Virus record (IMG/VR): IMGVR_UViG_3300009093_000003
Coordinates: 10,714-74,713 of that record
Strand: one strand, 5' to 3'
Length of the DNA stretch: 64,000 bases
DNA from: a virus
The translations under genes and the position numbers were made by a program. Position 1 is the stretch's first letter, and each line of letters begins with the position of its first letter. The notes beneath the pieces are model-generated. The model worked only from the letters and a program-made list of their open reading frames with translations. It searched no databases and was not told the origin of the DNA. Positions 3,335-56,704 of the stretch are shown here, one piece after another.

Positions 3335-3835
3335 ATGAACAAAACAATTTTAATTTTAATCGCATCTGCTGCTTTATTTTTAGCCGGATGCAACTTACCC
3401 TCTCAATCTGCCGATGAAAAAGATCAATCAAGGCAAGAGCGCATACAGGCAGAAGGACAAGCGCAGGCCGGGTTGCCTGACGTACACAACTTTACCGAAA
3501 AGAAAATGGTAAAGATGCTGTATGAATTGCGCGACAACCCAAATCTGATAAACTATGCCTACTTGTGGAGCGAAGTTTCCGGCAAATGGATTTATTTTGG
3601 CAAATGTATCGGCTATGGCATACCTTATTCAACGCAATACTGCAACCCCGAAAAATGGGTAATTAACTTAGGCGTAGATCACACTTTGCCGCAGGCTGAA
3701 CCTAACGGGCTATTTATGCCCTCAAGTAGCGAGGGTACATGGATTATGCTTATTAACCCATCCAACCCCAATGACATAAAGCCGGTCTATGTTGAACCGA
3801 AATTAATTGTTACACCTTTTAAACTACCGGAATGA
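3335..3835 (+). CDS. lipoprotein
   Basis: MNKTILILIASAALFLAG-C lipobox; GYGIPYSTQYxNP and QAEPNGLF motifs resemble a recurrent phage lipoprotein family. Confidence 0.8.
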   Translation: MNKTILILIASAALFLAGCNLPSQSADEKDQSRQERIQAEGQAQAGLPDVHNFTEKKMVKMLYELRDNPNLINYAYLWSEVSGKWIYFGKCIGYGIPYSTQYCNPEKWVINLGVDHTLPQAEPNGLFMPSSSEGTWIMLINPSNPNDIKPVYVEPKLIVTPFKLPE

Positions 3836-4844: not shown

Positions 4845-5189
4845 ATGTTCAACATCTTCAAAACACATTTCCGAACGCTATTAGCAGTTCTTTTAGCCTT
4901 TGTGATTTTTTCAACAACAACTTTCCAAGTATCAGCAAAACAGCATTATGGCCGCGCCTATCACGCGCCCACGGTCAAGGCCGTAAAAATAATTGCTTTT
5001 AGCATCAATGATACCCATTACGTTTATGTAGCCAGCCTGCCGGCCGAAGTGCCAACAATTTTGAGGATACCCGCGCCGCCCGTTAGCTATGGCCTGTATG
5101 TAAAAAATGAAGCGAAACCTGATAACCTGAATTACCAGCCGATAAAGTGGCGAAGTTTAGGTTTGATCGATGCGCAGAGAAATATTTAG
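4845..5189 (+). CDS. exported protein
   Basis: Signal-peptide-like N-terminus ending VSA. Confidence 0.6.
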   Translation: MFNIFKTHFRTLLAVLLAFVIFSTTTFQVSAKQHYGRAYHAPTVKAVKIIAFSINDTHYVYVASLPAEVPTILRIPAPPVSYGLYVKNEAKPDNLNYQPIKWRSLGLIDAQRNI

Positions 5190-7634: not shown

Positions 7635-7840
7635 TTTCGATTTTCCAAAAGGGCTTTCAACCCCGATAATATATTGGTGTTTTCCCTGATGTTGCGATTA
7701 CTATCATCCATTATCTTTTCGTTGCTCTCCCGCCACTCTTTTCGTTCTGCCCGATGGTCCTTCATAAGTTTTAAAACAAACCACGCAAGCGCCACTATAA
7801 CTATTCCGGGGATACCATAGCTGTCAAGGATATTATTCAT
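7631..7840 (-). CDS. holin-like (BhlA/UviB-type) single-TM plus coiled-coil protein
   Basis: YGIPGIVIVALAWFV then REERKEWRE-type charged coiled coil. Confidence 0.6.
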   Translation of the reverse strand: MNNILDSYGIPGIVIVALAWFVLKLMKDHRAERKEWRESNEKIMDDSNRNIRENTNILSGLKALLENRK

Positions 7841-8106
7841 TTCTTGGCAAGCTGGTTTCTCAGTTCATAAATACTATCCCCCAGCGTGTCAATCTTTTTT
7901 TCAATTGGATCAATACGCTCATTGACAATCTCCTTTAAACGCGCGTCCCGGCTCTCTGAAAAGTATTTGAAAACATAATGGATAGCAGCATAGCACAAAC
8001 CAAATATCGTTGCCCAGGGCAACAATTCACCGGCGAAAGAAAACCAATTATTTTGTTGAGGTTCAGGTGCTGCCATCGTTCTCGTTTTAATCTTGTAAAA
8101 ATCCAT
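7837..8106 (-). CDS. single-TM plus coiled-coil membrane protein (holin-like)
   Basis: TM followed by heptad tail IEKKIDTLGDSIYELRNQL. Confidence 0.55.
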   Translation of the reverse strand: MDFYKIKTRTMAAPEPQQNNWFSFAGELLPWATIFGLCYAAIHYVFKYFSESRDARLKEIVNERIDPIEKKIDTLGDSIYELRNQLAKK

Positions 8107-8452
8107 GATTTGTCGCTGCTATCAGTACAAAAATTGTTACTAACATAGTGCCAATATCTACAACCGCCATTAAGTAATAAGGATTAAGTATTAAAAATCT
8201 GTTAACCAATAGTGTTATTACGAAGGTAAAGATAACAACAAAATAGATAACCTGTATTAGTTGCCCCTGCAAGTTTGTATTTCCTCCAAATCTTTGAAAT
8301 ACATACAGGGCTGATAAAATAAAGGCGTAGTTAAAGGCGCGCCAGTTGCTTTTAGTCAGCTCCTGCATTGGTATGTTCCTTAGCCAGTAAACAAATACCG
8401 TATGGCTTATTAAAAACAATATCAATGCCGCACCGATAAGCCACGTTTTCAT
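8087..8452 (-). CDS. 4-TM membrane protein
   Basis: Probable start MKTWLIG at 8452 (ATGA overlap with upstream gene); four hydrophobic segments. Confidence 0.65.
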   Translation of the reverse strand: MKTWLIGAALILFLISHTVFVYWLRNIPMQELTKSNWRAFNYAFILSALYVFQRFGGNTNLQGQLIQVIYFVVIFTFVITLLVNRFLILNPYYLMAVVDIGTMLVTIFVLIAATNHGFLQD

Positions 8453-8685
8453 GTTTCGGGAACGGCAACACAAACGTTGCCATTGCAGGCGCAATAATAG
8501 TTAGCCAGGCCAACGGCTGGACAGCCGACATGGTCGTGACAATTAGCCGGGGAGCATCCGCCGCCATCTAAAGGCTTAGGTCGCGCTGTGCCATTCTGAT
8601 CGGCTTCCATGCAAGCCAATACAAATTCCCTTGTTTCTTCTTCGAGGGATTGTAAATAGGTGAAAATCTGTTTTTGTGTGTTCAT
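8449..8685 (-). CDS. small protein: acidic helical leader + GGG + six-cysteine C-terminal core
   Basis: ...PKPLDGGG-CSPANCHDHVGCPAVGLANYYCACNGNVCVAVPET. Confidence 0.7.
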   Translation of the reverse strand: MNTQKQIFTYLQSLEEETREFVLACMEADQNGTARPKPLDGGGCSPANCHDHVGCPAVGLANYYCACNGNVCVAVPET

Positions 8686-8696
8686 TGTTTTATGAT

Positions 8697-11600
8697 TTAT
8701 AGTTGTGTAATACGCGCCCCCGCATCATATGTAACACTTCCGGCCCCGACTGTCAAATTAGTTTTTACAGTAATAACCGTGCCGTTCTTTGCCCTTATTG
8801 TCACCGGGTTATAATTACTATCCGCAATTGAATTTAACGTTGTGTACGATACTGTTTGAGAAGTATTGTTTTCATCCGTATAAGTTACCTGCACCTGGAT
8901 AACATCGGTTGCGATTGCTGTTACATTTAAATATGCAGAAATGTTAAATGTTGCCGTTGATGACCCTACTGTAAACGTTGTAACGTTGCCGGCAGTAGTT
9001 TGTGCCGTCAGGTCGTTTGACGCTTGCGTTAGTGCTATGGTTGAAGGTGCCGCGGATGCGATAAGTGTTGCTACCTGGCTTGCGGTTAGTGCTGTCGGAA
9101 CTGCCGTACTGCCGGTCACATTGCCCAAAATGGTGTTATTCGCCTGTGTTTGTATCTTAGCATAAGTGACAGCATTGCCCCCCAAGTCGCCGTTAACCAC
9201 CTGGCTTGAGCTCATAACGTGCGAACTGTTAAAGTGAGCCACGCCAGCGCCCAACGAATTAACCGTAAGCGCATTTATAGCCACTGTGTTATCATTTAAA
9301 TCGGGCGTACCAGTACAATAGTAATGTGTGCCATCAGTGCATACAAACGCATATAACTGCCCGTTAGCGGTACGCTGGTTGGCAAGTGCTAAACCACCGC
9401 TAATATTGCCAGTGAAGTTAAATGATGTATTTGCTAACGCGCCCTGTGAAATAGCCGGATCGTTGATTAACACATAAAATATTTGCCCTGTTTTACCGCC
9501 GCTAAAGTTGGCTATAACCGTGGTCGAGCTGTTATTTGTGATAAAGTAATTACCGGCAGAAATAACGGGTGCTGTGCTGTTAACAGTAAGTGTTGTAGAG
9601 GTATTGCCTAAAAATCCGTTACCCTGGCTATAGGCAGGAAGAACTGCGTATTGCTGTACATTCGGCGAAAGTGTCCCGGTGGCGCTTGCACTTAATCCAT
9701 TCAGTGTTCCGCTACAAGTGCTTATAACAAGGTTTAGAGGTTTGTTATCGGTGTAAACCGACCACGCCGGTTTGTTAGCAGCTACGGCTGAATTACTAAA
9801 CTGGCAGAATTGAAAGTAAGCTGATATACCAACCCCGCTGTAAGAGTTAATATTTACATCTGCATAGGTATTGTCAGTCGTCTCACTATTGCCAAAAATG
9901 ATACAATGCTCAAACATATCCCCACGATTAGCGGTTAGCGTTGTTGTACCGGTAGCAAGCAATATCCCTTCATGCCCATTATAATTGCTGAAAACCTTTA
10001 TAAAAGAGTTGCTCGATCCTTCGTCATAAATCCCAACAAGGGTATTCGAGAAGAAGTCACTATTGAAGCAACGTAAAGAGGTGTTGTTTGTCCATAGGCC
10101 ATTATTACAGAAAAAGCCACCGCATGTCTCGATATAAGTATCGAGGGCTAAAATATGAAATCCGTCACCGGCGCAATTGTAAGCATAATCTGTGTTAAAT
10201 CGGATGCCGTCTACATTAGGTTGAATTAAAAACCCGTGAGTTTTACCATTTATAACCACAACGTTATCAATGTCTATGCCCGATTGAATAACCCCGTTCA
10301 TGGCGGGACCGCCTGTGCCTACGGTTGGCTGTATAAACTTAATACCCTCACCAGCGGTGGACAAAGCCATATCTATATAAAAGTTCTTACAATTAGCGTC
10401 ACTTGGCTGCGTAGCATTGGTCATTGTAGTAAAATCGTAAACTACCGCTGCGGAGCCTAACGAAGATGAGGCGACTAATGTAGATGCGTTAAAGCCGGAA
10501 AAACCTAAAACTGCGTTAACGTTTGCAGTAGGCGAAGTTCCCTCTAATGTTACCCCTTCCAACATCGATATGCTCGAAGATATTTTGTATCTAACGTTCC
10601 GAAGTTTAACAACTCCTATCTTTTTTAAATTGGCTGCCGCGATACAAGCGTTTATTGCCGGGGCATCATCGTGGCTGTTATCTCCTAACGCACCGTACCA
10701 TTCCGGCAACAGGTACGTACCGTCAATAACCCTAAGCCAGTAAAACCCGCCAAATGTGCTGTTAAAAATAATCCCGTTGTCAATTACCAACCCAGATGAA
10801 GAAACAAGTTTAAATGTTCCTCCTCTATAAACAGTGTCTACCACTATTGTTGTTGCCGGAGAAGTCGTTGCCTGTAATTGTGCAATGCCTGCTACGTGCG
10901 GGACATAAGATGTTGCCACATCAGTACTGTCTGCCAATACCGGATTAAGCCTATATGGGGCTTTTATCGTCATATCAGCCGCTCGGTTTACCCAAATAGT
11001 TCGCCTGTAGGTACTGTTTTTCCAACTTAACCGGTTTAAGCTATCGGGATAAATCTTCAACCTGCCAGTTGTTGATGACGGACTAATTGATTGTGAACCG
11101 AGATCAATGTACCCCTGTCCACCCTGTCCGGCCGCATAAAAATTAGTAGCATTGAGTGGATTTATAAAATAGAATGGATTGCCAGTAACGTTTACTGTGT
11201 CTGAATTAAGCCAGTTTACATTCATGGCCAAGAACCCGCTCGGCTGATACCCTGCAATTCCGTTAACACTGGCGGCAAATTGTGCTTGTGACCCGCCTGT
11301 TACATCAGTTAAATAAAGATTGTGCGAGGTAAGCAACCCGTTGAAATTGCCATTTTGAACATTATAGCCGTATACGTTACTTGTCGGGGTTAAGCTAATC
11401 CCGTTATTTGCATTATAAGGAACATACCCTGTTGTTGATAATTTTGCCCACCTCGTATCGCCCTTTGGAAAGAAATTTAAAACCGTCTGCAATACTGTGC
11501 TATCTGCCTTTACAGCACCGCTTGTAGTAATTGTGGTAAAGTTCATGCCATAGCCTGCCGAGACGCTTGTAACACTGCCTGGCGCACCGCCTGTAGCAAT

Positions 11601-12341
11601 CAGTTTACCATTTGCATCATAACCCACGCCGCCCACTGGTGTACCGCTGCCAATATTCGGTATCAGCACCTGCCCCCAAACGTAAAGTGAGTTTTGAAGC
11701 CCCAAGCCTGTAAACATATGGTCAAGGGTATCAACATTTTTTAAGTTTATATTGCCTGTCTTACCAAAGAAAGCCATTTTTGTGAGGCCGGTAGAATCCT
11801 GAAAGTTCCACCTTAACTCCCCCGGTGGTGTTACCGAGGGTGTATTTATTCTTAAAGCCCATCCTCTGAATGCTGTGGTTGATATTATACCACCCAACGA
11901 CCTCAAACCATTGGTGCCCACCAAAACATCAAGCAGATCGCTTGTGGGATGTGCCCCCTGTATCACACCCTGGTTATGAACATATAAACCAATACTTTCT
12001 GTATTATCTGTGTTTATATTCATAAATGACTTTAACTGTATTGCAGTTGTGGTAGCCAGTGAACCCGGTACTGCGGTATAAGTGCCTAATACCGTTTGTG
12101 GGGTTGGTGAGTTTAAAAGCAACGCCTGTGATTTTAAAGTATAAGGCGCTAAATCCCTTTGCAGCTGCACACTGTCAACATCTTGTGTCCACCCATACAA
12201 AGACCCGTGGTAAGTCCACCAGTTTTTGGTGCTGGGCTCAAAATATTTCGTGTTTGTTGTTATCGGCCCCACCGGCGATATTGGCTGTGCAAACGCAGCC
12301 GCCGATATAAAGAGCAATAAGATAAAGCTTAGTTTTTTCAT
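8697..12341 (-). CDS. tailspike/fibre with beta-helix (Pectate_lyase_3-like) depolymerase domain and N-terminal signal peptide
   Basis: PEWYGALGDNSHDDAPAINACI beta-helix cap, Asn/Gly-rich rungs, VTYAKIQ...ILGN fibre motif; N-terminus MKKLSFILLLFISAAAFA-Q. Confidence 0.85.
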   Translation of the reverse strand: MKKLSFILLLFISAAAFAQPISPVGPITTNTKYFEPSTKNWWTYHGSLYGWTQDVDSVQLQRDLAPYTLKSQALLLNSPTPQTVLGTYTAVPGSLATTTAIQLKSFMNINTDNTESIGLYVHNQGVIQGAHPTSDLLDVLVGTNGLRSLGGIISTTAFRGWALRINTPSVTPPGELRWNFQDSTGLTKMAFFGKTGNINLKNVDTLDHMFTGLGLQNSLYVWGQVLIPNIGSGTPVGGVGYDANGKLIATGGAPGSVTSVSAGYGMNFTTITTSGAVKADSTVLQTVLNFFPKGDTRWAKLSTTGYVPYNANNGISLTPTSNVYGYNVQNGNFNGLLTSHNLYLTDVTGGSQAQFAASVNGIAGYQPSGFLAMNVNWLNSDTVNVTGNPFYFINPLNATNFYAAGQGGQGYIDLGSQSISPSSTTGRLKIYPDSLNRLSWKNSTYRRTIWVNRAADMTIKAPYRLNPVLADSTDVATSYVPHVAGIAQLQATTSPATTIVVDTVYRGGTFKLVSSSGLVIDNGIIFNSTFGGFYWLRVIDGTYLLPEWYGALGDNSHDDAPAINACIAAANLKKIGVVKLRNVRYKISSSISMLEGVTLEGTSPTANVNAVLGFSGFNASTLVASSSLGSAAVVYDFTTMTNATQPSDANCKNFYIDMALSTAGEGIKFIQPTVGTGGPAMNGVIQSGIDIDNVVVINGKTHGFLIQPNVDGIRFNTDYAYNCAGDGFHILALDTYIETCGGFFCNNGLWTNNTSLRCFNSDFFSNTLVGIYDEGSSNSFIKVFSNYNGHEGILLATGTTTLTANRGDMFEHCIIFGNSETTDNTYADVNINSYSGVGISAYFQFCQFSNSAVAANKPAWSVYTDNKPLNLVISTCSGTLNGLSASATGTLSPNVQQYAVLPAYSQGNGFLGNTSTTLTVNSTAPVISAGNYFITNNSSTTVIANFSGGKTGQIFYVLINDPAISQGALANTSFNFTGNISGGLALANQRTANGQLYAFVCTDGTHYYCTGTPDLNDNTVAINALTVNSLGAGVAHFNSSHVMSSSQVVNGDLGGNAVTYAKIQTQANNTILGNVTGSTAVPTALTASQVATLIASAAPSTIALTQASNDLTAQTTAGNVTTFTVGSSTATFNISAYLNVTAIATDVIQVQVTYTDENNTSQTVSYTTLNSIADSNYNPVTIRAKNGTVITVKTNLTVGAGSVTYDAGARITQL

Positions 12342-12353
12342 TTTCTTTAAAAA

Positions 12354-12917
12354 TTAAGGTTGCACACCTGAAATTAAAATATAGCCTGTCGTTGCTATAG
12401 GGTACCCCCATGTAATTGAAACAATACCGCTTGTTGGATTCCCTGGCGTAGCATAAACATAGTCCGGCGCTGTGCCGTTATCCGGCGTAAAGCCGCCTAA
12501 GCCGTCAGCAACAAATATTTGAACGTAAGGCGTATTCCCGAAACGTGAGTAATAGGCCGTTTGATATGACAGTAAAGCAACTGTGGTTTGATTTGTAAAC
12601 GGAAAAGTATCACTATTAACTATTGAACCGGTTGTTGTCACATCAATGATTACTCCCGGATTTTGAGCGTTAGGATCAATAGAACCACCTGCATACTGCC
12701 CCACAAAGGCGCTTAAACACGCATAGGCTGCTTGAAATGTTGCAGACGAAGTATCACCCAGCGAATATCTGTTTTGTACCGCTAATACGCTCCTGTTGCC
12801 CTTAATAGCAGTATCCCAATTAACATTCAATGCCCCGTTCTGTAAAGCGGTATTATAACCTAAAACAAGGTTAGCAATTTTCAGTTGACCAGTTAATATT
12901 TCGTCACTTACTGCCAT
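12354..12917 (-). CDS. tail structural protein (fibre attachment/hub-like)
   Basis: Thr/Gly-rich; position immediately before the tailspike. Confidence 0.55.
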   Translation of the reverse strand: MAVSDEILTGQLKIANLVLGYNTALQNGALNVNWDTAIKGNRSVLAVQNRYSLGDTSSATFQAAYACLSAFVGQYAGGSIDPNAQNPGVIIDVTTTGSIVNSDTFPFTNQTTVALLSYQTAYYSRFGNTPYVQIFVADGLGGFTPDNGTAPDYVYATPGNPTSGIVSITWGYPIATTGYILISGVQP

Positions 12918-12918
12918 A

Positions 12919-13398
12919 TCACATTAATTGAGAAACTATATTTTGATTGACCCAATAATTAGCCATAATTATACAGGCGTTTGCCGAGGCAGCGCCTGCC
13001 AACCCTGCAAGGTTAAACCTCAATGCAGCCTGTAGTGACAACTGGCTTTTTTCAAGGTTACAGTTATTCCCCTGGCAACCGCAATTCGTTGCATTGAATT
13101 GTGCAAGATAGGCGTTCCAGTAATATCCCTGTGCCACTATGTACACCGTTGTGACCCACGGCGACCCCGAAACGTTATCGGTTACGGTACATACAAATTT
13201 TAACCAAACATCTGCCGGAAACGTATAGGTAGCCGTCAGGGTTGAACCCATATTTATCGTTTGCAATAAAGTTCCTGCTGAATTGTAAATGGTGAGTATG
13301 CGGGAACTAACAACCCCGTAACTTCCTGTATCTGTATAAATAATACTACCGCCAGTGAGGCTGTTTTCTACTGCGGTTCCACTTGGTGTACTCGGCAT
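12919..13398 (-). CDS. tail hub-like protein
   Basis: Ig-like N-half plus helical C-half with CGC...C cluster, as in crAss-like tail-hub proteins. Confidence 0.55.
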   Translation of the reverse strand: MPSTPSGTAVENSLTGGSIIYTDTGSYGVVSSRILTIYNSAGTLLQTINMGSTLTATYTFPADVWLKFVCTVTDNVSGSPWVTTVYIVAQGYYWNAYLAQFNATNCGCQGNNCNLEKSQLSLQAALRFNLAGLAGAASANACIIMANYWVNQNIVSQLM

Positions 13399-14110: not shown

Positions 14111-14662
14111 ATGATTTCCGAAATGGGACTTTTAAATTTTATGCCAAAGAGGCTTTTACCAATAGAAGAAATACTTAAATCTAAGTATAAAGAAAACCTT
14201 GAAACAGGGTGTTGGGAGTGGTTAGCCGGAAAGAATAAAGCAGGCTATGGAGTGATAGGTCACAACCATACTCCATATTTAGCACACAGATTGTCATATA
14301 TCATCAATATTGGAGAAATTCCTAACGGGTTACTGGTCTGCCATAAGTGCGATAACCCACCATGTATAAATCCAGATCACTTATTCTTAGGTACACCTAA
14401 AGATAATGAAGCGGACGCCCGTAACAAAGGCAGGAAAAGAGCGAAAGAACACCCAAGCCTTGAATGTTATAAGTGCGGTTGTCGTTGCGACGATTGTAAA
14501 AGATTAGAATACGAAAGAAAAAAGAAAGCAAGGTTAAAAAACCCCGAAGTATTTAGTGAAAGAGGAAAAAAGTACTACAAAAATAATAAAGACAAGGCCA
14601 GTGCTTATGGGAAAGAATACTATCTGCGAAATAAGGAAATAGTAAAAAAAAAGAAGTGTTGA
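14111..14662 (+). mobile_element. HNH homing endonuclease, antisense within the late operon
   Basis: GCWEW...GYG...AHRLSY...[27 protein letters not shown]. Confidence 0.9.
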
Positions 14663-25466: not shown

Positions 25467-26417
25467 TTATAAAGGCCTCGAACCCAAAAATACTGGTTTG
25501 CTGCGCACCGATATTGAAAACAAAGTTAATGGAGTTGAGCCATTAAAAGTAATTAATTCAATTATAATGAAAGAACCCCTAAGTCCGACGCCATTTGTAA
25601 TTCCACCATTATCATTTTCATCTCCTAAAAACGAAGCGGAATAAACCCCATCATTTTGGTAGGATATAACTTCTAAACCGCCGTCCTGTAGTTTTTGCTT
25701 TATAAAGTCTGTATCAATCAATGTGCTTATTTGGCCTAAACTTGTCTGCACACCGTCTTCGGTGGTAATCAACAATTGATTTGCCTGGTAGGTCAATGCC
25801 TCAAAATCTTTTACGATCTGCGGGTCTTTGGCCTCGACAAATTTTATTGAGCTCTGAAATTGTGTGCCAAAAAAGTTATTGGTACTGCCCGATTGGTCGC
25901 CGTTGTCAAATGCCCATAAAGCGCCGTTGTTAGCAACTATCGTTCTTGTGTACAATGACCATCCGAAATCAGGATAAAACGTGCGCGTATCGCTCCATAT
26001 AGCCATACCGCGCTTTGCTGAATTGGTTGCTGAATAAACAATGGTAGTGCCGGGATTGCTTGAAACTGGTTTTACGTTGAAAAAAGCGATCACACAATTG
26101 GCATCCGAATAAAACTGTAAATTTCCGTCTGATAACGGTGTAATATTTTCTACGTACAACCCTGCTGTTGTCCTGGGAACTATTGTAGCGCCCGGCGCCA
26201 CCAACTCTACTTCACCACCACCCGATATGGATTGAACAATAAAACTTACCTGGTATTCCTGACCAGTTTTTACAGGATAGCTTTCAAGTGTAATATAACC
26301 CCCGTTGCACGATGAATGTACCGCTGTTCCATCGCCAGGAACAGACCAACCTGTATCATTGGCTGCAACCAGCAAATTAACTTGTATCGGAGTATTTTCT
26401 AACGCGCTGTATGACAT
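25467..26417 (-). CDS. tail nozzle/stabilization protein, C-terminal part
   Basis: Probable start MSYSAL at 26417; NNFFGTQFQSSIKFV...KDFEAL and GVGLRG motifs typical of the C-terminus of crAss-like stabilization proteins. Confidence 0.65.
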   Translation of the reverse strand: MSYSALENTPIQVNLLVAANDTGWSVPGDGTAVHSSCNGGYITLESYPVKTGQEYQVSFIVQSISGGGEVELVAPGATIVPRTTAGLYVENITPLSDGNLQFYSDANCVIAFFNVKPVSSNPGTTIVYSATNSAKRGMAIWSDTRTFYPDFGWSLYTRTIVANNGALWAFDNGDQSGSTNNFFGTQFQSSIKFVEAKDPQIVKDFEALTYQANQLLITTEDGVQTSLGQISTLIDTDFIKQKLQDGGLEVISYQNDGVYSASFLGDENDNGGITNGVGLRGSFIIIELITFNGSTPLTLFSISVRSKPVFLGSRPL

Positions 26418-26418
26418 A

Positions 26419-29400
26419 TCACATTGTAAGGCAAATAATTTGTATTGTTGTCGGGTCGTTAACCGTTCCAGTAAAAGTAAGAAAATAGTCGTTCGGGCCG
26501 GTATATAAAACTGAACTAACCTGTACACCGCCAACGAATAGCGCTAAATACGTGTGTCCAGGGAAAGACGGTGTGCCAGTACCGGTTACCTTTACGGTTA
26601 ACCCTGCTCCGCCTGTGGTTGTATATGCAGCATAAATACGCTGCCCGTTGCTCATAGGGAAGCCTGCAAATACCGGTGTGCCCGAACAGGTGCCGTTGGC
26701 TACCGCCGAAATACCAACGTTGTACTGGCTGTAGATACTGTAGTTACCTGCCGCAGCCGCTAAGGTTGTCGCCGTAAACGTCCCGGTTTGCGCACCTATG
26801 GTCAATGTTGTGCTTACCGAGGTTGAATTGCTTGCACTGGTGGTAAGCCGCACCTGTATACTGTCCCCGGCTACCGTTGTGCCGGCCGCGCTTGTCCATG
26901 CACCACCATTGATGCTGTATTGTCCGCTGCCGCCCGATATGCTAATCGGTACAGCAATATTCGGCCCCGATACCGTCACGTTGTTGATACTTGGCTCCAC
27001 GGTATTCAATGGCTGCCCTGTGATCGCTATGAAGCTAAAAGGATTTACCGTTGTATCACCCGCTATCCAGTTTAAACAATTGTTGATTGTGGTTAACGAG
27101 CCGCCAGGGGGAGTGAAACTAAACATCGCTGTATCGCCGCCGCTATAGCCCGGCGTTGGGGTATAGGTAACAACCCCGGTAGCGCCGTTATAGCTTGCGG
27201 TGCAATGCGCACCGTTAGGCGTAGCCGAAACATCGCCGGGGGTAATGACATAGCTATTAAATGGGTTCCAATCGGCCAGCGTGAACGGGAAAAAGAAAAG
27301 TTGTCCACCGTCTGCCTCAATGGTTAATACCGCTTCTTCGTAATAATCACTATAGTAAAAATTTATACGTTTTCCCTGTGAGTACGCCAGTTGCAATAGG
27401 TTCTGAAAAAACTTCGTCATTTTACCGCTTATCGGCTCTATCCGGCCTGCAACAATACGGTAAGGCAATGATTTATTAGGGTCAATAAAATACATGGTAC
27501 TATATCGCCTGCAATATGCCTTTGTTAAGCCTATGCCAACGTTTTCGTTATCGTACCGCCCGTTATTAAGCAATATTGAACTTATGGACTGGCCTGTAAG
27601 TTCATCGTTCAATACCGTATACGCTTCATTAACCGGTATCCTGAAAACGCCTAATTCCTGCAATACCCATAGTTCCTGCCCCACTTGGTCCATAATTTGA
27701 ATACCGCCCTTGCTTGATGATGTTTGCCCGTTATTGTTGCCGTAAATATGCGCGGGATAAGCCCTGTTTAGCCCGTTTATGCGGCTCCCCAAAACATATG
27801 GCTGCCCGGTAATTATCAGCGCCTGTTGCTCGCTTTGCTCAAGCACATCATAATAGGTTCGTACCCGCCCATAGGAATGATAGTTCGATTGGTAAAAGTC
27901 ACTGTAATTTAAGTCTGTTGCCAAAACGCCTATCGGTGGATTTGTATATGGCTTTATCGGGTCAGGGAACTGCCTGGTCTTATAATAAGCGCCTACGCTA
28001 ATATTAAATGCAGTTTGGGTAATTACGCCGTTTACAACCGGTATCGGTTCACCGATCTCAAACCACTCTGTGGTGTTAAGCGCAGTGCTTGCCGTGGCTG
28101 ATTGCGGCGCAAGGGAATAAAGCCGCATAAATATTGCCCGGCCATCGATCTGAAAACCGTTGTAATAAATATGCCCGTTGTTAAATGTGAACGCTGCTGA
28201 ATTTTCAACCTTTACCAAATAAGTCCCGGCATCATAGCCTAAAACGGCTAAGTCAACACACGGCTGATTGAAAAAGTTGTTCCCATTGGTTACTAAGGAT
28301 ACGATTGTTAATGACCATCCGGTGCCGCCTGTTACCGTTCCTGTGAGCACATCACCCACGGTATAGCCACTCCCAGCGGTGGTTATCACAACGCCTGTTA
28401 CAACGTTCCCGGCCACTGTTACCGTGCCTATCGCGCCAGTCCCGGTACCGCCTGTCAATGATACGTTAGTGTATGTTCCATTAGTGTATCCGGTTCCGGG
28501 TGTAATGCTAAAGGTATTTACAGCGCCGATAGATGCGATCCAGTAATGCAGCGTACACCTGTCGCCAGGCGCAAAGTCATACACCAAATTGGTGCTTACT
28601 CCCTGCTGTGAATATTCGGCGTTTAATAGCGATAATGAGTTGAGGCTAAAAACCAGTATGCCGCCCTCTGCCGTAGCAAGATTGCCGAATGTCTTTGGTA
28701 GGACAGCGTAGTATTGCCCCGCTTCCGCACCTCCGGTAGTCCCGCCCACATTGGTAATGTAGTCACCCGTATTATAGGTATCATTATGCCCAAGGTTAGT
28801 GTAATCCGCTCCGGCCACGACAAGGTTTGCCGGGCTTGCCGGGGTTGTTATTTGGTAGGTGTCGCCAATGTTCCCGCTATTTATAGCCAAACCGGGGCTA
28901 TTGGTACGCGCATCCCAGCTGCCCTTAAATGTTACCAGGGTAGAGATAACATCCAAAACCTTCAATACGTTTGGCTTAGTAACCATTATCTGCCCGAAAG
29001 CCGCGCCTGCCGGGGCTGCTGTTGTATTTATAGTAAAGTTTAGTTGTGTGGCATTACCGTTCTGCTGCGCGTATGAGGGTAATGTAACTATATTGCTGTT
29101 GTCTGTTGTTACCGGCATTGGCCTCATCTTATAGTCGAACCAGCCTATTGCCGTTTGTACCGAGCAATTGTCAAGCATGGTCGGTATGGAGTTGGCTACC
29201 GAAGCACCGGCGAAATAAAGTTCTACCGAAAAGGTTTGCAACCCGAAATATGGTGCATCCGTCCAAAATATCTGGTAGCCCCCGCCCGGCGCTGTTTGAT
29301 AACTACCGCTCAATGTTTCTGCAATAGAGGTCACCACGGCCAGTAAATTGCCATCCTGCGCTATCGGTACAGTATATGAAAAATTTCTTATGGAGCTTGC

Positions 29401-44980: not shown

Positions 44981-45892
44981 TTAGCTAACCACCCCGATAA
45001 TAATATCCATATTTAAAATGCACTGCCTGTTAGGCAAGATACAGCCGTGGTTACGGTACACAAGCAATTTGTCGCCAACTGACATTCGACCTGGCTTTAC
45101 CTTGTCGCCGATAGCAAGTACACTGGCGTACGTAAACCGTGGTTCCGGCGTTTCAAGATGCTTTGGATAGAGTGTCCGGGCGTGCGCCTTGTCAAGATGC
45201 GGATAGTGCTTGTCAACATATTCTTCCCGCGCATCCTCGTTAGCTATCTTCCATTGCTCCCAAGCCGGATCGGGCAAATACTCCACCAATACAACATCGC
45301 CAACCGGTAAATAACCATCATTGGTTTCAATGCCTACGATTTCCCGCTCATCAACCTTGATATACTTTTGCCCGTTGTAAATAAGGTCGTACTGAAAGGC
45401 ATCGACGGTGATAACAACCGTTCGAATATCTACCAATGGGTTGCAATCTTCCGGCAAATACTTTATTTTGATTTTTACCGGTTCTTTGGTTTCCAGCGAC
45501 GTCGATAAAATTATACCCGACGAAGTTCTTTCATATTCACTGTGTACCTCGTCGCCAAGATAAGTTCCCGGCATACACCGGATGGGGTCAACAAGAAATA
45601 AGATCATTTTTGCCGGTATCGCAGCGCGTTCCTCGTCAATCCATTTAGCCACTTCAAACGCGCCATAGTGAACGAACGCTCGGTGGCCTGCGTACCCATC
45701 AGACAATATGTCAACCACCTTCGGATTGATCTTTCTGCGGTCGGTAGTTACGCCCCAGGCAGTATCGGCATCCTCGTCCCCTTCCTCAATCACATAACGC
45801 TCCGGCACAAACAAACCACTGTCCTGCTTAACCAGCGCTGACGATTTATCATACTCGAATTTAACTATTATATTTCCGTTGGTTGGCGTCAT
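44981..45892 (-). CDS. tandem GroES-like co-chaperonin
   Basis: PTNGNIIVK, TSSGIILS mobile loop, LPVGDVVLVE, VLAIG...VGDKLLV, DIIIGVV. Confidence 0.7.
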   Translation of the reverse strand: MTPTNGNIIVKFEYDKSSALVKQDSGLFVPERYVIEEGDEDADTAWGVTTDRRKINPKVVDILSDGYAGHRAFVHYGAFEVAKWIDEERAAIPAKMILFLVDPIRCMPGTYLGDEVHSEYERTSSGIILSTSLETKEPVKIKIKYLPEDCNPLVDIRTVVITVDAFQYDLIYNGQKYIKVDEREIVGIETNDGYLPVGDVVLVEYLPDPAWEQWKIANEDAREEYVDKHYPHLDKAHARTLYPKHLETPEPRFTYASVLAIGDKVKPGRMSVGDKLLVYRNHGCILPNRQCILNMDIIIGVVS

Positions 45893-46872
45893 CTTGCTAT
45901 CTCAATTAGTCGGGTTTCCCTTAGTTTGTTAATTTTACTCAAAAGTAATTCATCGCAAATAAATTCCCAACTATCATCATGGGCACTTTCTAAAACATAC
46001 TGATATTGTCCACTCAACATTTTAGGTAATTCAACTAATGGCAAAATACCCGGCTTGTTAAATTCAGGAAATTCTTTATTGCCGAAATATGCCGCACCCG
46101 AAAAAATGCTTTCTAACCAGCTGCAATTAGATTTAGCCCGGTTAAACTGGCTATCGGTTAACGGATAAAAAAATACCTGTGGGTTTATGTCGTGCATCAT
46201 TTTATAAAATTGCACAGTTGACCCGCCCGGATTATGAAAAAAGTTCCCGTATTTAACACGGTACTCTATCCATTCAAATTTTTGTCCAAGCCAATAAAAA
46301 TGCCATTTTTTATTACTGTTGACTAATTTTACAATCCATTCTGCAACGCCAGGATAATAAATATCCCCCATATGGCTACCACCACCGCGCCACATTATCC
46401 GCTTATTTTTACCAAACGGCATTTTATCCTTTACCGGAAAGACAATTTCATTATGCGCATTCGGGATAACATGGATATTTTTATTGAATAGTCTAAAAGA
46501 GTTCTTTATGCCCTCCGTTGCTACCCAAATTTCATCAAGAAGCGCCAACCCTTTTAATGTGTGCTTCTTGTCCCCGTTATAAACGCCAAACATGGGGTTG
46601 GTTTCCGGCACGTGCAGGCAGTCGTCGTCAAAATCACCTATGACTAACTTATGCATGTCCTTAGCCATCTTTATCAGGTTTAGATGAGATTCCGACGACG
46701 GCCTTGAAATTATAACAACATCATAGGGGTTTAAAAGATGTGATTTTATGTCGTGTTCTGTTGACCGGGTAATGGTAAAGTTTTTATTTTTAAGATAATC
46801 CAACGGCATCATACGGTAGTATTCGGTAGCCGACTGCCAGTGATCGAAATATAAAACTTTTGTTACGCTCAT
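45889..46872 (-). CDS. GT-B glycosyltransferase
   Basis: YYRMMP, DFDDD, VIPNA, WRGGGSHMGD, PLTDSQFNRAKSNCSWLE motifs of phage GT4-like enzymes. Confidence 0.85.
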   Translation of the reverse strand: MSVTKVLYFDHWQSATEYYRMMPLDYLKNKNFTITRSTEHDIKSHLLNPYDVVIISRPSSESHLNLIKMAKDMHKLVIGDFDDDCLHVPETNPMFGVYNGDKKHTLKGLALLDEIWVATEGIKNSFRLFNKNIHVIPNAHNEIVFPVKDKMPFGKNKRIMWRGGGSHMGDIYYPGVAEWIVKLVNSNKKWHFYWLGQKFEWIEYRVKYGNFFHNPGGSTVQFYKMMHDINPQVFFYPLTDSQFNRAKSNCSWLESIFSGAAYFGNKEFPEFNKPGILPLVELPKMLSGQYQYVLESAHDDSWEFICDELLLSKINKLRETRLIEIAR

Positions 46873-47582
46873 TTCCTTTTCATTACCCTAATGTGTTCTA
46901 TATTAAAAACAAAATCCCATTTTTCGCCATGTTCCTTCATATAATCAAGGAATGCATCAGTCACTGGCTGTATCCCTGCAAAATGACCTGTAGGAGCAAA
47001 ATTAAGATCGTTGCAACAATCGTCCATTACCAAAAAACCGCCACGATATACTAACGGAGCATAATTGTTAAGGTCGGCCTCTACATCGTTATACTCATGC
47101 GACCCATCAATATACACTATATCAAAAAGCGAATTTTGATTTGCAAAATTTACCGCTTCTTCTTCTTGAGAAAAACCGCGGTATAAGTTCGGATATTCAA
47201 TGTTAAACTTGTCGTGTAGTTTTTGTATGTCTCCCTGGTAATCATCTTCTGTCCACCCGGTACCAGCGCCATTCATTGGTGTGATACCGAATATATTAGC
47301 ATTTTTACTGGCTCTGTTTGATAAAATTCGGATAAGGCTTATAACCTGGCACTTGTGGCAGCCGATTTCCAAAAACCTAAAATCATTTCGCATTTCATCC
47401 ACTAAAAGTTTCCACACCCAATGAAAGGCGTCCTCTCCCATCCCGAAAACATGGTCACGAACCCATTTTCTATGCGTGCTCAACTCTGTATCATCGGCGA
47501 CTAATTGCGATAACAAATGTTTTAAATGATAATGCGATTCCGGCGTATCGAGCCATTCTTGTTTTAATGTTTCTAAAGTCAT
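46869..47582 (-). CDS. class I SAM methyltransferase (Methyltransf_24-like, sugar O-methyltransferase)
   Basis: FLEIG, FDIVYIDGSHEY...DL...GGFLVMDD. Confidence 0.88.
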   Translation of the reverse strand: MTLETLKQEWLDTPESHYHLKHLLSQLVADDTELSTHRKWVRDHVFGMGEDAFHWVWKLLVDEMRNDFRFLEIGCHKCQVISLIRILSNRASKNANIFGITPMNGAGTGWTEDDYQGDIQKLHDKFNIEYPNLYRGFSQEEEAVNFANQNSLFDIVYIDGSHEYNDVEADLNNYAPLVYRGGFLVMDDCCNDLNFAPTGHFAGIQPVTDAFLDYMKEHGEKWDFVFNIEHIRVMKRK

Positions 47583-47662
47583 TTCTTTGTTTTAAAATAG
47601 ACATATTGAGAATAGGCGAATGCATAAAATGAACAAATCAATGCTATTATCGGTGACGTCAT
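47579..47662 (-). CDS. 27-aa single-TM microprotein
   Basis: MTSPIIALICSFYAFAYSQYVYFKTKK*; ATGA-coupled at both ends. Confidence 0.6.
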   Translation of the reverse strand: MTSPIIALICSFYAFAYSQYVYFKTKK

Positions 47663-48306
47663 AATTTTATCAATTCGTTAAATTTTTCATCAACTGTTTT
47701 TCCGTTAAGGTGAATAAAGCAGGGTTCATTTCCAAATATTTGCACCCGGTTATTATCATAAGTGTATTCTCCAGCAGCTATAAAACTATGTGAATTGAAA
47801 ATAGATTGCCCATAATCCGGCCTTATTTTTTGATGTTTTTCGTTCCCCTGCAACAAAAAACAAATGTTTAGCCATAATTGGTCATCTATCTCATAAAATG
47901 GTGGGTAATATTCAAAAAGTTGTATAAATATCTCTGATTTTGCGTAATACAAACCACTATTTGGAAAGTTAAACCCATGTCCAAAGTCCGCATACTCATT
48001 TCTAAATGGTATCATTGACGGCGGCCACAGATTCTTTTCACAAGAAACTACCATTTGATCCGTTATCCACAATTTACTTTCAAATTCATCAGGGCCGGCC
48101 AGCGCAACAACATCATGAGCGTCACAAAAAATAAATCGGTCAACCTCGGGATGCGATTTTAAATACTCATAGGTCGCAATAAGTTTTGTTCCGAACCCTT
48201 TCCATTCAGTTACAATAGCAACCCCATCCCACTTGTGTTTTCTAATGGAATCTAACAAGGTTTTGGCGAGCGAAATATCATTTGTTACTGTGATTACCCT
48301 AAGCAT
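47659..48306 (-). CDS. PLOD/procollagen-galactosyltransferase-like GT-A glycosyltransferase
   Basis: W.GFGTK, FIFCDAHDV, VSCEKNLWP, FPNSGLY, DDQLW, IHLNG motif series. Confidence 0.85.
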   Translation of the reverse strand: MLRVITVTNDISLAKTLLDSIRKHKWDGVAIVTEWKGFGTKLIATYEYLKSHPEVDRFIFCDAHDVVALAGPDEFESKLWITDQMVVSCEKNLWPPSMIPFRNEYADFGHGFNFPNSGLYYAKSEIFIQLFEYYPPFYEIDDQLWLNICFLLQGNEKHQKIRPDYGQSIFNSHSFIAAGEYTYDNNRVQIFGNEPCFIHLNGKTVDEKFNELIKL

Positions 48307-48922
48307 CTCTACGCCTCCATAATCCTTTTTTAAAACCTTTTTTTATACACTCAAACCTATCGCCCATGTGTTGTTCTACCAATTCGATAGGAATAAAATC
48401 AGATGTAATATCATCTATGCAAAGTATTGCGCCGGGAAGCATCCGGTCAGAAAACCAATCCACCTCATGATTAACGGATTCTACCGAATGTGGCCCATCT
48501 AAATGAACAAAACTATAACCTGTACAGCCTATCTCATCAATATTGTAAATTGGCACAAAATCACCAAACCTTTCAAAATATTCATCGTCTGTCATACAGA
48601 AATAATGAAAGTCAACCGGGTTTTCAGCTACGTAAGCCCATAGTGCAGCCAGCGTTTCCGCTTTCATTTGATTGGTGTAATCGAGCCGGCAGGCTTCCAT
48701 GTGTTCGCGTGGCTTATACAAAATTGATCCGTATGGATCGACCGCCACAACCGTTTTACCAGGGCAATATTGCCGGACAGCATCAATAATAGTCTTTGTT
48801 CCCAAGCCGCGGCGAAGGCCAATTTCAATGCACATTCCCGATACATATTTGCTTAGTTCGACCGATTCGGTCAAAAATTCGTATTCGCCGCTGTCGCCGC
48901 TTATTTGGTAATTATTCCCCAT
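48299..48922 (-). CDS. class I SAM methyltransferase (Methyltransf_24/TylF-like)
   Basis: IEIGLRRGLG, VDPYG, FVHLDGPH, CIDD. Confidence 0.85.
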   Translation of the reverse strand: MGNNYQISGDSGEYEFLTESVELSKYVSGMCIEIGLRRGLGTKTIIDAVRQYCPGKTVVAVDPYGSILYKPREHMEACRLDYTNQMKAETLAALWAYVAENPVDFHYFCMTDDEYFERFGDFVPIYNIDEIGCTGYSFVHLDGPHSVESVNHEVDWFSDRMLPGAILCIDDITSDFIPIELVEQHMGDRFECIKKGFKKGLWRRRDA

Positions 48923-49658
48923 CGTAATAATATGGCAATTCGCCTTTTTGTATCATTTCCATGTAAACCGAGGCTTCGGTAAGCCAAACACTGGCTTCCT
49001 TTTTCTTCCATTCGGTGTAATCAGTTCCACCCCGATCAAGATTTGTGATTTTGATGTGCGGTAAAAAAGCGTTTCTAAATCCTGCAGCAATAGACCTAAC
49101 GCAATAAATACTATCATCAAATCCGTACAAACTCGGCTGCGAAAGTCCGCCGCATTTGTCCATCATCAGCGGATTATACGCGGTACAAGTTCCAATAATA
49201 TCAGGGCATATTTCAAGTTTGCCCTCCATTTTTGTACGATAGTGAATGTTTTCGTGATCGGGCCGTTGCCAAATGCCATAGCGTTTTAATCCCAGAATAC
49301 CAATGTCAGGATGTTTTTTTATTTGCGCTTCCAATTGTTCAACCCAGCCGGCTATTGACCATGTAAGATCATCGTCACATTTTATAACCACCTCTCCAGG
49401 CTCCCGCGCATACAACCCTTTATTTATCCCTTTTGCTGTGCCAATATTTTGTTTTAAATGCAAGATGGTCACATTTAAGCCATCTGTTGGCAAACTATCG
49501 AGATATGCTTCTGTTTCAAGTGTACACGAATTATTTACGATTATCCAGCGATGTTTTTTAAGGTCAACGGTATTCATCAAAGATGTGAGGCACTCTTTGA
49601 CAATAGGCAATTTCTTATTGTCTTTCGTTGCGAAAATGCATTGAACTATGAGCGACAT
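48912..49658 (-). CDS. GT2-family glycosyltransferase
   Basis: IIVNNS, NIGTAKGINKG, KCDDD (DxD), YGFDD motifs. Confidence 0.88.
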   Translation of the reverse strand: MSLIVQCIFATKDNKKLPIVKECLTSLMNTVDLKKHRWIIVNNSCTLETEAYLDSLPTDGLNVTILHLKQNIGTAKGINKGLYAREPGEVVIKCDDDLTWSIAGWVEQLEAQIKKHPDIGILGLKRYGIWQRPDHENIHYRTKMEGKLEICPDIIGTCTAYNPLMMDKCGGLSQPSLYGFDDSIYCVRSIAAGFRNAFLPHIKITNLDRGGTDYTEWKKKEASVWLTEASVYMEMIQKGELPYYYDGE

Positions 49659-56141: not shown

Positions 56142-56438
56142 TTAAAAACTGTCTAAGTAAGCATCAACCGCTTCTTTCGGTGTAAGGCCTTTTATATAAA
56201 AAGCAATATAATCATCTTCTTCGGTCATGAGAAATGCAGATATTTCTTCTTCTCGCCGTTGAACTTTTTTAAACCACTTGATAAAATCCCAATCCTCTTT
56301 TTGATATTTTGTTAGTAAATCATAGGGATACCATTTGTTATTAACCGGAAGTCGTGACCATTGACCACCGATAAACTTGCGGAACCATTTATACTTACTA
56401 AATCTTTCTCGAAAATTATTTAAAATAAACTTTTTCAT
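56142..56438 (-). CDS. hypothetical protein
   Basis: Coupled ORF. Confidence 0.55.
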   Translation of the reverse strand: MKKFILNNFRERFSKYKWFRKFIGGQWSRLPVNNKWYPYDLLTKYQKEDWDFIKWFKKVQRREEEISAFLMTEEDDYIAFYIKGLTPKEAVDAYLDSF

Positions 56439-56704
56439 TATTTATGATCTTTTAACTGATTTTCATACAAATGTGTCACCGGCCTACCATCAACATCGTT
56501 GATGGTATAAAACCACCCATAATAATCAGGTTCCTGATATGCTGCAGTCACTACACAAGGGCAAAAAACCATTAAAGGTACAAATGACTTTGACGGGTTG
56601 ATGTCATTGAAATACACAGTTTCGCCAATGTAAAAAGGTGGCTTAATGCTTTCTTTTTTGCAAGACAATAGCGTTAATAGTAGTATGATGGGTAGCTTTT
56701 TCAT
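56438..56704 (-). CDS. lipoprotein
   Basis: MKKLPIILLLTLLS-CKKE lipobox followed by K/E residues. Confidence 0.7.
   Translation of the reverse strand: MKKLPIILLLTLLSCKKESIKPPFYIGETVYFNDINPSKSFVPLMVFCPCVVTAAYQEPDYYGWFYTINDVDGRPVTHLYENQLKDHK

Follow-up and report, generated by a model that had tools for sequence, protein, structure and literature searches.

A podovirus-like phage fibre with a Bacteroidota-type signal peptide and a sequon-rich stalk: a candidate for maturation in the host periplasm

INTRODUCTION

The particles of tailed phages assemble in the cytoplasm of the host cell. Podovirus tailspikes and fibres (P22 gp9, spikes bearing PF12708, fibres with an SGNH esterase) are made in this way, without a signal peptide; they are large late proteins whose genes close the tail module, and each joins a conserved N-terminal domain (N-domain) to a distal part that varies and to a head of trimer type. 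Here we describe P0001, a predicted fibre or spike of 1214 amino acids (aa) that shares this organisation, and whose homologues carry the same distal families (PF12708, PF13472, PF03629), but which differs in having a Sec signal peptide of the ‘Q-rule’ type (Gln at position +1) ahead of its N-domain. Its gene lies in a 64,000-nucleotide stretch from an uncultured phage, hereafter the window (bases 10714–74713 of the 74,713-bp IMG/VR virus record IMGVR_UViG_3300009093_000003, rated complete by CheckV). Our comparative analysis indicates that P0001 is very probably exported via Sec, and that there is good support for selection, on its stalk, of the motif for Bacteroidota O-glycosylation; that the protein also joins the particle is proposed more tentatively.

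Sec-exported and signal-arrest-release (SAR) endolysins demonstrate that phages can station late proteins in the envelope until lysis; Lys44 of phage fOg44 is reportedly one of the Sec-exported kind. The gp47 protein of phiKMV/JG068 is an SAR endolysin (PMC3765740). P0001 would resemble these enzymes in passing through host Sec as a late phage protein before lysis, and in waiting in the envelope for the holin; they, however, are small lytic enzymes that never enter the particle, whereas P0001 is a 1214-aa protein of fibre type with a predicted cleavable signal.

The remaining parallel is with exported proteins of the bacteria themselves. The Q-rule has been described as specific to signal peptidase I (SPase I) substrates of Bacteroidetes (PMC5837995), where glutaminyl cyclase converts the +1 Gln to pyroglutamate (PMC5837995, PMC10653852). 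The O-glycosylation system of Bacteroidota acts on non-cytoplasmic proteins only, with periplasm-facing domains as its main targets (PMC12871550, PMC8729774); Glu cannot substitute for Asp in the motif of B. fragilis (PMC12871550), and occupancy of motif sites is reported to be generally close to complete, with glycosylation extending to engineered or foreign ones (PMC12871550, PMC8729774). With the substrates of these pathways (PMC12871550, PMC8729774, PMC5837995, PMC10653852) P0001 has in common the type of signal, the +1 Gln and a three-residue motif that occurs above chance; the known substrates, however, are cellular proteins. Prophages of P. gingivalis are reported to encode Q-rule proteins of unknown function, though not fibres, and no sequon analysis was presented for them (PMC10367356). 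In full-text searches we found no published precedent for signal-bearing tail fibres or spikes, or for host O-glycosylation motifs upon them; new here are the Q-rule signature on fibres and an excess of proximal sequons that is both motif-specific and linked to the signal.

RESULTS

A Q-rule signal peptide conserved across the family

Two features, in window coordinates, define the starting point:

8697..12341, minus strand: P0001, predicted exported fibre or spike, 1214 aa from an ATG start (open reading frame and translation; same protein on the 74.7-kb record)
12288..12341, minus strand: signal peptide, aa 1–18 (read from the sequence)

The N-terminus of P0001 consists of MKK followed by LSFILLLFISAAAFA; its hydrophobic core is 15 residues long and leads into A-F-A↓Q-P, with Ala at both −3 and −1 and Gln19 at +1. 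A sequence-only reading of this DNA had described a classical SPase I signal with Gln at +1 on a 1214-aa protein, and both our own reading of the sequence and its conservation among homologues bear that out. Signal peptides were called with a simple rule-based scan (positive n-region, core of 10–15 residues, small residues at −3/−1) and, when all open reading frames were scanned, P0001 alone was flagged within the structural operon.

An exhaustive phmmer search with residues 1–520 as query gave 66 cluster representatives (the ‘N-set’). A signal is present in 61 of these, the remaining five appearing to be fragments, and an [A/G/S]-Q cleavage motif is found in every one of the 61 (56 sites scored by script and five read by eye, where a later Gln stands in the proper −3/−1 context); Gln makes up 3.1% of residues overall. 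A second set of 70 proteins, picked by the shared C-terminal head alone and with the N-terminus ignored, has a Q-rule signal in 55 members (53 by scan, plus P0113 and P0115 by eye), bringing the total for both sets to approximately 115. We see no reason for Gln to be conserved at +1 in 61 of 61 proteins other than that these signals really are cleaved in a Bacteroidota periplasm, and take export of P0001 via Sec to be very probable.

A start at a codon downstream of the signal, one of the outcomes which the sequence-only reading had set against its own proposal, was looked for in five orthologous genes: no in-frame start just past the signal is conserved, and a signal-less isoform made from an internal start is for that reason unsupported. 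It is, likewise, highly improbable that P0001 is not exported at all, its hydrophobic N-terminus acting as a structural element or membrane tether of a cytoplasmic fibre and any glycans being added by the phage's own glycosyltransferases. Such a view would keep to the textbook picture of cytoplasmic assembly, and the phage does encode a GT2 and a PLOD-type glycosyltransferase together with two sugar-type methyltransferases in its late region; but the 61 of 61 Gln residues at +1, with small residues at −1 and −3, are inexplicable without periplasmic cleavage by SPase I (PMC5837995), the same type of signal is found on an ordinarily secreted nuclease family in related phages, and the glycosyltransferase and methyltransferase genes are inconstant.

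A motif-specific excess of sequons in the proximal stalk

The regions of P0001 to which the following counts refer are:

12132..12287, minus strand: conserved N-domain, aa 19 to ~70, including DSV56 (aligns with P0050, P0052, P0057, P0015, P0054, P0017, the L003/L004 genes and the L018 spike)
10827..12131, minus strand: sequon-rich stalk, aa 71–505, seven sequons (count and permutation)
11412..11624, minus strand: stalk module A, aa 240–310, with DST280 (found 192 times, in 61 signal-bearing proteins; absent from full-length proteins that have no signal)
10887..11162, minus strand: stalk module B, aa 394–485, with DSL433 and DST471 (33 instances)
9342..10826, minus strand: central domain, aa 506–1000, free of sequons, with nine of the 11 Cys (sole homologue P0055, 46% identity)
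aa 1001–1098: linker
8700..9047, minus strand: C-terminal head, aa 1099–1214, C1q/TNF-like jelly roll (AlphaFold and structural comparison)

The script finds eight D-(S/T)-(A/I/L/V/M/T) sites in P0001 (DSV56, DST182, DTL204, DST280, DTV381, DSL433, DST471 and DTV502), which account for eight of the 20 Asp in residues 1–505 and none of the 30 in residues 506–1214; the sequence-only reading, which had counted eight of 20 in the first ~505 residues and none thereafter, is thereby reproduced exactly. Taken over the whole protein the excess is weak (eight against 4.5 expected, P = 0.07), whilst residues 1–505 hold eight against 1.7 expected (P = 2.5e-4, for a cut that was set post hoc). A permutation test with the choice of best split included returns P ≈ 7e-4 for clustering; the other 29 proteins of the window show no excess (25 sequons against 30.7 expected).

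Across the family, the 66 N-set proteins contain 634 canonical sequons where composition predicts 259 and, in the 46 full-length homologues, the ratio of observed to expected falls along the chain from the first decile to the last as 6.0, 3.7, 3.6, 3.2, 2.6, 2.9, 1.5, 0.9, 1.0 and 0.55. Motif specificity was measured in the proximal 60% of the chain, giving these observed/expected ratios:

D[ST][AILVMT]: 3.45
E[ST][AILVMT]: 0.63
N[ST][AILVMT]: 0.89
reversed motif: 0.82
D[AG][AILVMT]: 0.82
D[ST]-polar: 0.66

This pattern mirrors the published rules for glycosylation: Asp is needed, with Glu no substitute for it in B. fragilis, and the third residue is hydrophobic or Thr (PMC12871550). The C-terminal set allows the presence of sequons to be compared with that of a signal, and here the survey of homologues proposed at the outset was positive: 58 signal-bearing members hold 360 proximal sequons against 159 expected (2.26-fold), whereas 15 signal-less members hold 52 against 52 (1.00-fold; Mann–Whitney P = 2.9e-4 between the two). 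About a dozen full-length members of this set have ordinary, non-hydrophobic N-termini. An excess of Cys in the signal-bearing proteins was also considered and is not seen; if anything, it is the signal-less proteins that are richer in Cys.

The earlier proposal of export combined with stalk sequons is thus well supported by comparison (~115 signals; 3.45-fold for the motif against 0.6–1.0-fold for the controls), and these sequence statistics support well the view that the Bacteroidota O-glycosylation motif has been selected for on the stalk. Since motif sites in a Bacteroidota periplasm are reported to be nearly fully occupied, glycosylation becomes the default expectation and, granted export, P0001 is likely to be glycosylated.

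The triplets could instead be structural features of the stalk of an exported, virion-attached protein, unglycosylated or only incidentally glycosylated. The first Asp-Ser/Thr of module A is indeed kept in 99% of 149 instances, alignment A1 of module B has two invariant Asp-Ser pairs, the consensus …aDTxvLsTRA…kgiDSL… resembles the start of a helix, and P. gingivalis is biased against glycosylating abundant surface-exposed proteins (PMC8729774). With modules A and B masked, however, the proximal parts retain 259 sequons against 88 expected (2.94-fold), standing above expectation in 44 of 46 proteins; the third position obeys the glycosylation rule, polar residues there being depleted to 0.66-fold; and motif sites of exported proteins are reported to be nearly fully occupied, with engineered sites used (PMC12871550). 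We therefore regard a purely structural role as improbable.

Domain organisation and fold

Similarity to P0001 is modular: modules A and B recur in long metagenome proteins, the stalks of the family containing up to 18 repeat modules, whilst the N-domain is found in a smaller set. Lying directly behind the signal, this N-domain is a candidate particle-attachment or anchor domain. Types of N-domain recur among the homologues in combination with varied distal enzyme domains (SGNH/PF13472, SASA/PF03629, PF12708), a modular build that is usual among receptor-binding proteins of virions.

P0001 itself has no match in Pfam (E≤1), PHROGs, NCBIfam or the sequences of the PDB. For the central domain, the sequence-only label of ‘beta-helix’ could not be confirmed: no profile matches, AlphaFold gives a predicted local distance difference test score (pLDDT) of 35 for residues 496–1090 from the single sequence and below 50 for residues 506–1090 with a 40-row alignment, and a BLASTP comparison with the PF12708-bearing P0084 shows no similarity. 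The sole support comes from an ESM-Atlas lead to PF12708 (at 0.89), and the region is treated here as a presumed beta-helix enzyme domain.

The head is better defined, with pLDDT of 75–92 when modelled by AlphaFold from the 40-row alignment. Exhaustive structural comparison (VIA-align) placed its fold by the following matches:

zebrafish C1qA head: Z 9.3, root-mean-square deviation (rmsd) 2.6 Å, 105 residues aligned
4-1BBL: Z 9.1
PRD1 vertex spike P5 (1yq8): Z 8.8
receptor-binding protein (RBP) of lactococcal phage 1358 (4l92): Z 8.5
BclA (1wck): Z 8.0

Scores for the C1q globular domain, 4-1BBL, P5 and the 1358 RBP range from 8.5 to 9.4. A Z near 9 is moderate, exceeding by only a small margin the best score that models without a true match typically reach, but the matches are coherent, and the head models as a C1q/TNF-like trimeric fibre-tip domain. 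The C-terminal 116 residues share their jelly roll with the heads of PRD1 P5, 1358 RBP and BclA (Z 8.0–8.8, rmsd 2.5–3.5 Å over 104–114 residues) at a sequence identity of only ~10%; a common function is not implied.

More than 70 proteins share this head of ~115 residues at 55–89% identity, although they have different central parts (PF12708, PF13472, PF13229, PF26696). Over the last ~150 residues (8700–9150, minus strand, against L005:12900–13351) P0001 and P0055 are ~95% identical, their central domains being ~45% identical; from these sequences the head looks to have been exchanged recently between phages that have no detectable portal in common.

We also considered whether the C-terminus might serve the type IX secretion system. 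No sorting domain (TIGR04183/PF18962 or TIGR04131 type) was matched in Pfam or NCBIfam at E≤1 in P0001, P0055, P0003 or P0008; the head occurs on signal-less proteins too, which argues against a sorting role; and it models as C1q/TNF-like. That P0001 is cargo of this system was therefore rejected.

Gene setting in the window

The portal of the phage (phrog_6547) is 23–26% identical to those of Flavobacterium, Cellulophaga and Maribacter podophages, and the window also encodes a Toprim-DnaB primase-helicase. We read the phage as podovirus-like and probably lytic, and infer a candidate Bacteroidota host from the signal peptide, the Q-rule and the distant similarity of the portal. The Bacteroidota −7 promoter motif TAnnTTTG is in no significant excess (98 against 83±8).

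P0001 is encoded by the last large gene of a long structural operon, beginning 12 nt past the stop of a 187-aa gene, and has an A/T-rich leader without a Shine-Dalgarno sequence. Its immediate neighbours are:

12919..13398, minus strand: upstream 159-aa gene, no signal peptide, syntenic partner (homologues in L003/L004, 163 aa, and L011, 60% identity)
12354..12917, minus strand: upstream 187-aa gene, no signal peptide, candidate adaptor (synteny in L003/L004 and L018; homologue in L011)
7837..8685, minus strand: three small downstream genes, encoding a 78-aa Cys-rich, a 135-aa multi-transmembrane (multi-TM) and an 89-aa TM protein (open reading frame calls)

The 187-aa protein matched no family. 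The three small genes 3′ of P0001 are a possible lysis or holin region: the 89-aa TM protein matches phrog_1009 and has a 49%-identical homologue 3′ of the signal-bearing cluster of L018, and the 78-aa and 135-aa proteins have no family match. No endolysin was identified anywhere in the 64-kb window. The 78-aa frame (six Cys in its C-terminal half) and the 135-aa frame overlap (8087–8685, minus strand), directly after the fibre gene.

Further afield, four late genes within 46869–49658 (minus strand) match sugar-modifying families:

48912–49658, minus strand: GT2 (family match)
47659–48306, minus strand: PLOD-type glycosyltransferase (family match)
46869–47582 and 48299–48922, minus strand: two Methyltransf_24/CmcI-like methyltransferases (family match)

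The gene that adjoins them (45889–46872) has no Pfam match. These genes could serve to alter a lipid-linked glycan of the host, or to modify virion proteins; an obligate pairing of the fibre with such glycosyltransferase and methyltransferase genes was dropped, as just one of five related records has Methyltransf_24, and a complete record lacks it.

Three further exported-type products are encoded outside the structural operon: two small lipoproteins with lipoboxes LAGC and LLSC (3335–3835, plus strand; 56438–56704, minus strand) and one small signal-bearing protein (4845–5189, plus strand). The first lipoprotein matches phrog_24725, whose function is not annotated. Within the tail operon, on the opposite strand, lies an HNH endonuclease gene (14111–14662, plus strand; phrog_1872, E 1e-27), probably a homing endonuclease, and a 355-aa protein (25467–26534, minus strand) contains the C-terminal domain of the crAss muzzle protein (PF25729, E 1.8e-6), a hint that the tail may be distantly related in structure to that of crAss-like phages.

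Homologous loci in other phages

Homologues are encoded on phage-sized contigs, many of 70–77 kb as here, and no copy turned up in either of two scans covering 185,579 species genomes of bacteria and archaea; we take these, then, to be genes of lytic phages of at least five lineages, placed last in the tail module or beside the lysis genes, rather than bacterial adhesins or prophage cargo. Searches of IMG/VR and GTDB genomes with P0001 or the module B alignment as query returned nothing, as did one with an ATP-grasp neighbour, and tblastn against 50,697 phage records produced a single marginal and uninformative match of 87 residues, in the DNA-metabolism region of Rhodobacter phage RcBigEagle.

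Gene context was read in the fetched loci L003/L004, L005/L008, L011 and L018. In L003/L004, homologues of the 159-aa and 187-aa proteins (the latter at 50% identity) are followed directly by a signal-bearing gene with the same N-domain, DSV included. In the 73-kb phage L018, four proteins with a signal and Gln (440, 1168, 452 and 795 aa, the first three consecutive) are encoded within L018:5406–15732; the one of 1168 aa has the N-domain type of P0001 and that of 795 aa contains five He_PIG Ig domains; a signal-less M15 endolysin lies downstream, and a single signal-bearing gene stands between the spike and the homologue of the 187-aa protein. The upstream genes recur in L011, where a 5.5-kb insert comes next and, after it, a PF12708 spike with a signal, TM proteins, a nuclease with a signal and a GH108 endolysin. 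L005/L008 is a complete phage of 45 kb in which the P0055 gene is followed immediately by a holin, a GH25 endolysin without a signal and an Endonuclease_NS that has one. The endolysins of these related phages are without a signal peptide.

The Endonuclease_NS genes beside the lysis genes (L005:14472–15035, L011:11573–12172) have Q-rule signals themselves, and may encode secreted nucleases that thin the lysate or biofilm. The syntenic fibre of L003/L004 has a possible lipobox, LMAGC, ahead of AMA↓Q (L004:10517–10600), and may be a lipoprotein instead of an SPase I substrate. L003/L004:1–9399 encodes a protein of more than 3100 aa with methylase-like and SNF2-helicase-like stretches and, by eye, an intein-like insert in its DEC…H helicase motif.

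Virion part or released enzyme?

Granted export, we think on balance that P0001 probably joins the virion. What argues for attachment is the recurrence of N-domain types right after the signal, the association of the P0001 type with the 159-aa and 187-aa genes, and the long repeat stalks; to which may be added a fibre-tip head that is found on signal-less proteins as well, and the L018 locus, in which we saw no other fibre candidate.

An exported P0001 might, however, never enter the particle, but act as a periplasmic or released polysaccharide-modifying ‘exit’ enzyme which would strip or alter capsule, lipopolysaccharide or slime from inside late in infection, so that progeny escape the debris or the infected cell loses its receptors; the glycans and Gln cap would then only stabilise the protein, as they do on host periplasmic proteins. 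This is the main rival reading, and we rate it as somewhat less probable. The P0001 gene lies immediately before small membrane proteins, those of L005 and L011 precede a holin, endolysin and signal-bearing Endonuclease_NS, homologues have esterase or lyase domains (PF13472, PF03629, PF12708), and the cassette occurs in phages with portals that are not detectably related. There is, moreover, a bacterial model in WceF of Pantoea stewartii, described as an exopolysaccharide enzyme of tailspike fold (PMC7949094): it is, like P0001, of tailspike type and provided with a signal for export, and it works outside the cytoplasm, but it is chromosomal, comes from Pseudomonadota, is not phage-borne and is not described as having a repeat stalk, Q-rule signal or sequon cluster. 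Yet an enzyme of this kind has no obvious need for conserved N-domain types behind its signal, for stalks of up to 18 modules or for a trimeric C1q-like head; nor does it explain why this type of N-domain is accompanied by homologues of the 159-aa and 187-aa proteins (L003/L004, L018), why no signal-less fibre candidate is seen in the 20-kb L018 locus, or why the head is common to signal-less proteins that resemble conventional fibres. Bacteroidota SPase I substrates also stay periplasmic without a further sorting signal, and none was found in Pfam or NCBIfam.

Several observations nevertheless weigh against maturation in the periplasm followed by attachment to the virion. The sequon counts are not independent of kinship: module A by itself accounts for 192 instances, and when the proximal parts were clustered by single linkage nearly all fell into one component, so that no independent groups were obtained. 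The contrast between signal-bearing and signal-less proteins is probably in part one of host phyla, given that two of the three signal-less loci examined have a GC content of 58–59% as against 30–45% in signal-bearing loci, and module A is restricted to signal-bearing proteins, which leaves no signal-less counterpart of this module for comparison. The conserved Asp-Thr/Ser of the modules could form a structural turn or helix cap. No docking partner on the particle emerged from the analysis, and the gene keeps company with the lysis cassette and with secreted nucleases: the L005 spike opens a transcription unit of its own with the holin, endolysin and secreted nuclease, behind an intergenic region of ~680 bp, a layout which fits an ‘exit’ enzyme equally well. 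The portal of the P0001 phage was not detected in five records with such genes, and easy transfer between unrelated phages is simpler to understand if the enzyme is free than if the protein must fit into a virion. Lastly, the first 50 kb of a related Flavobacterium podophage encode no signal-bearing large protein; the route is thus not a general one.

DISCUSSION

Taking these points together, the reading that we put forward, tentatively, is that P0001 is exported, Gln-capped, O-glycosylated on its stalk and joined to the particle at lysis. In outline, the Sec translocon would take up the precursor and SPase I would cut after Ala18, leaving an N-terminal Gln to be cyclised by the glutaminyl cyclase of the host. 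The protein would then fold and trimerise in the periplasm around its C1q/TNF-like C-terminal head, whilst the host's O-glycosylation system would modify the Ser/Thr of the eight proximal sites; the distal part would stay bare, keeping both enzyme and receptor-binding head free of glycans. The DNA-filled particle, assembled in the cytoplasm, would meet the fibre once the holin breaches the inner membrane, or at lysis, and the N-domain would dock on the tail, perhaps via the two conserved upstream proteins.

Were this correct, a receptor-binding protein matured in the periplasm would add to the phage life cycle an assembly step at or after lysis, and would be the first case we have found of a virion part modified by the general protein glycosylation of a bacterial host. 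Glycans of host type on the stalk could affect stability, resistance to proteases, and immune or lectin recognition in the gut and the environment; recombinant fibres produced in E. coli would be without such modifications. The combination of a Q-rule signal with an excess of proximal sequons would offer an inexpensive way to mark uncultured phages as having a Bacteroidota host, and would also flag those proteins that need expression in Bacteroidota to be native. It is conceivable, if still short of probable, that several unrelated lineages of Bacteroidota phages build their recognition apparatus in the periplasm, and that their virions wear the glycans of the host.

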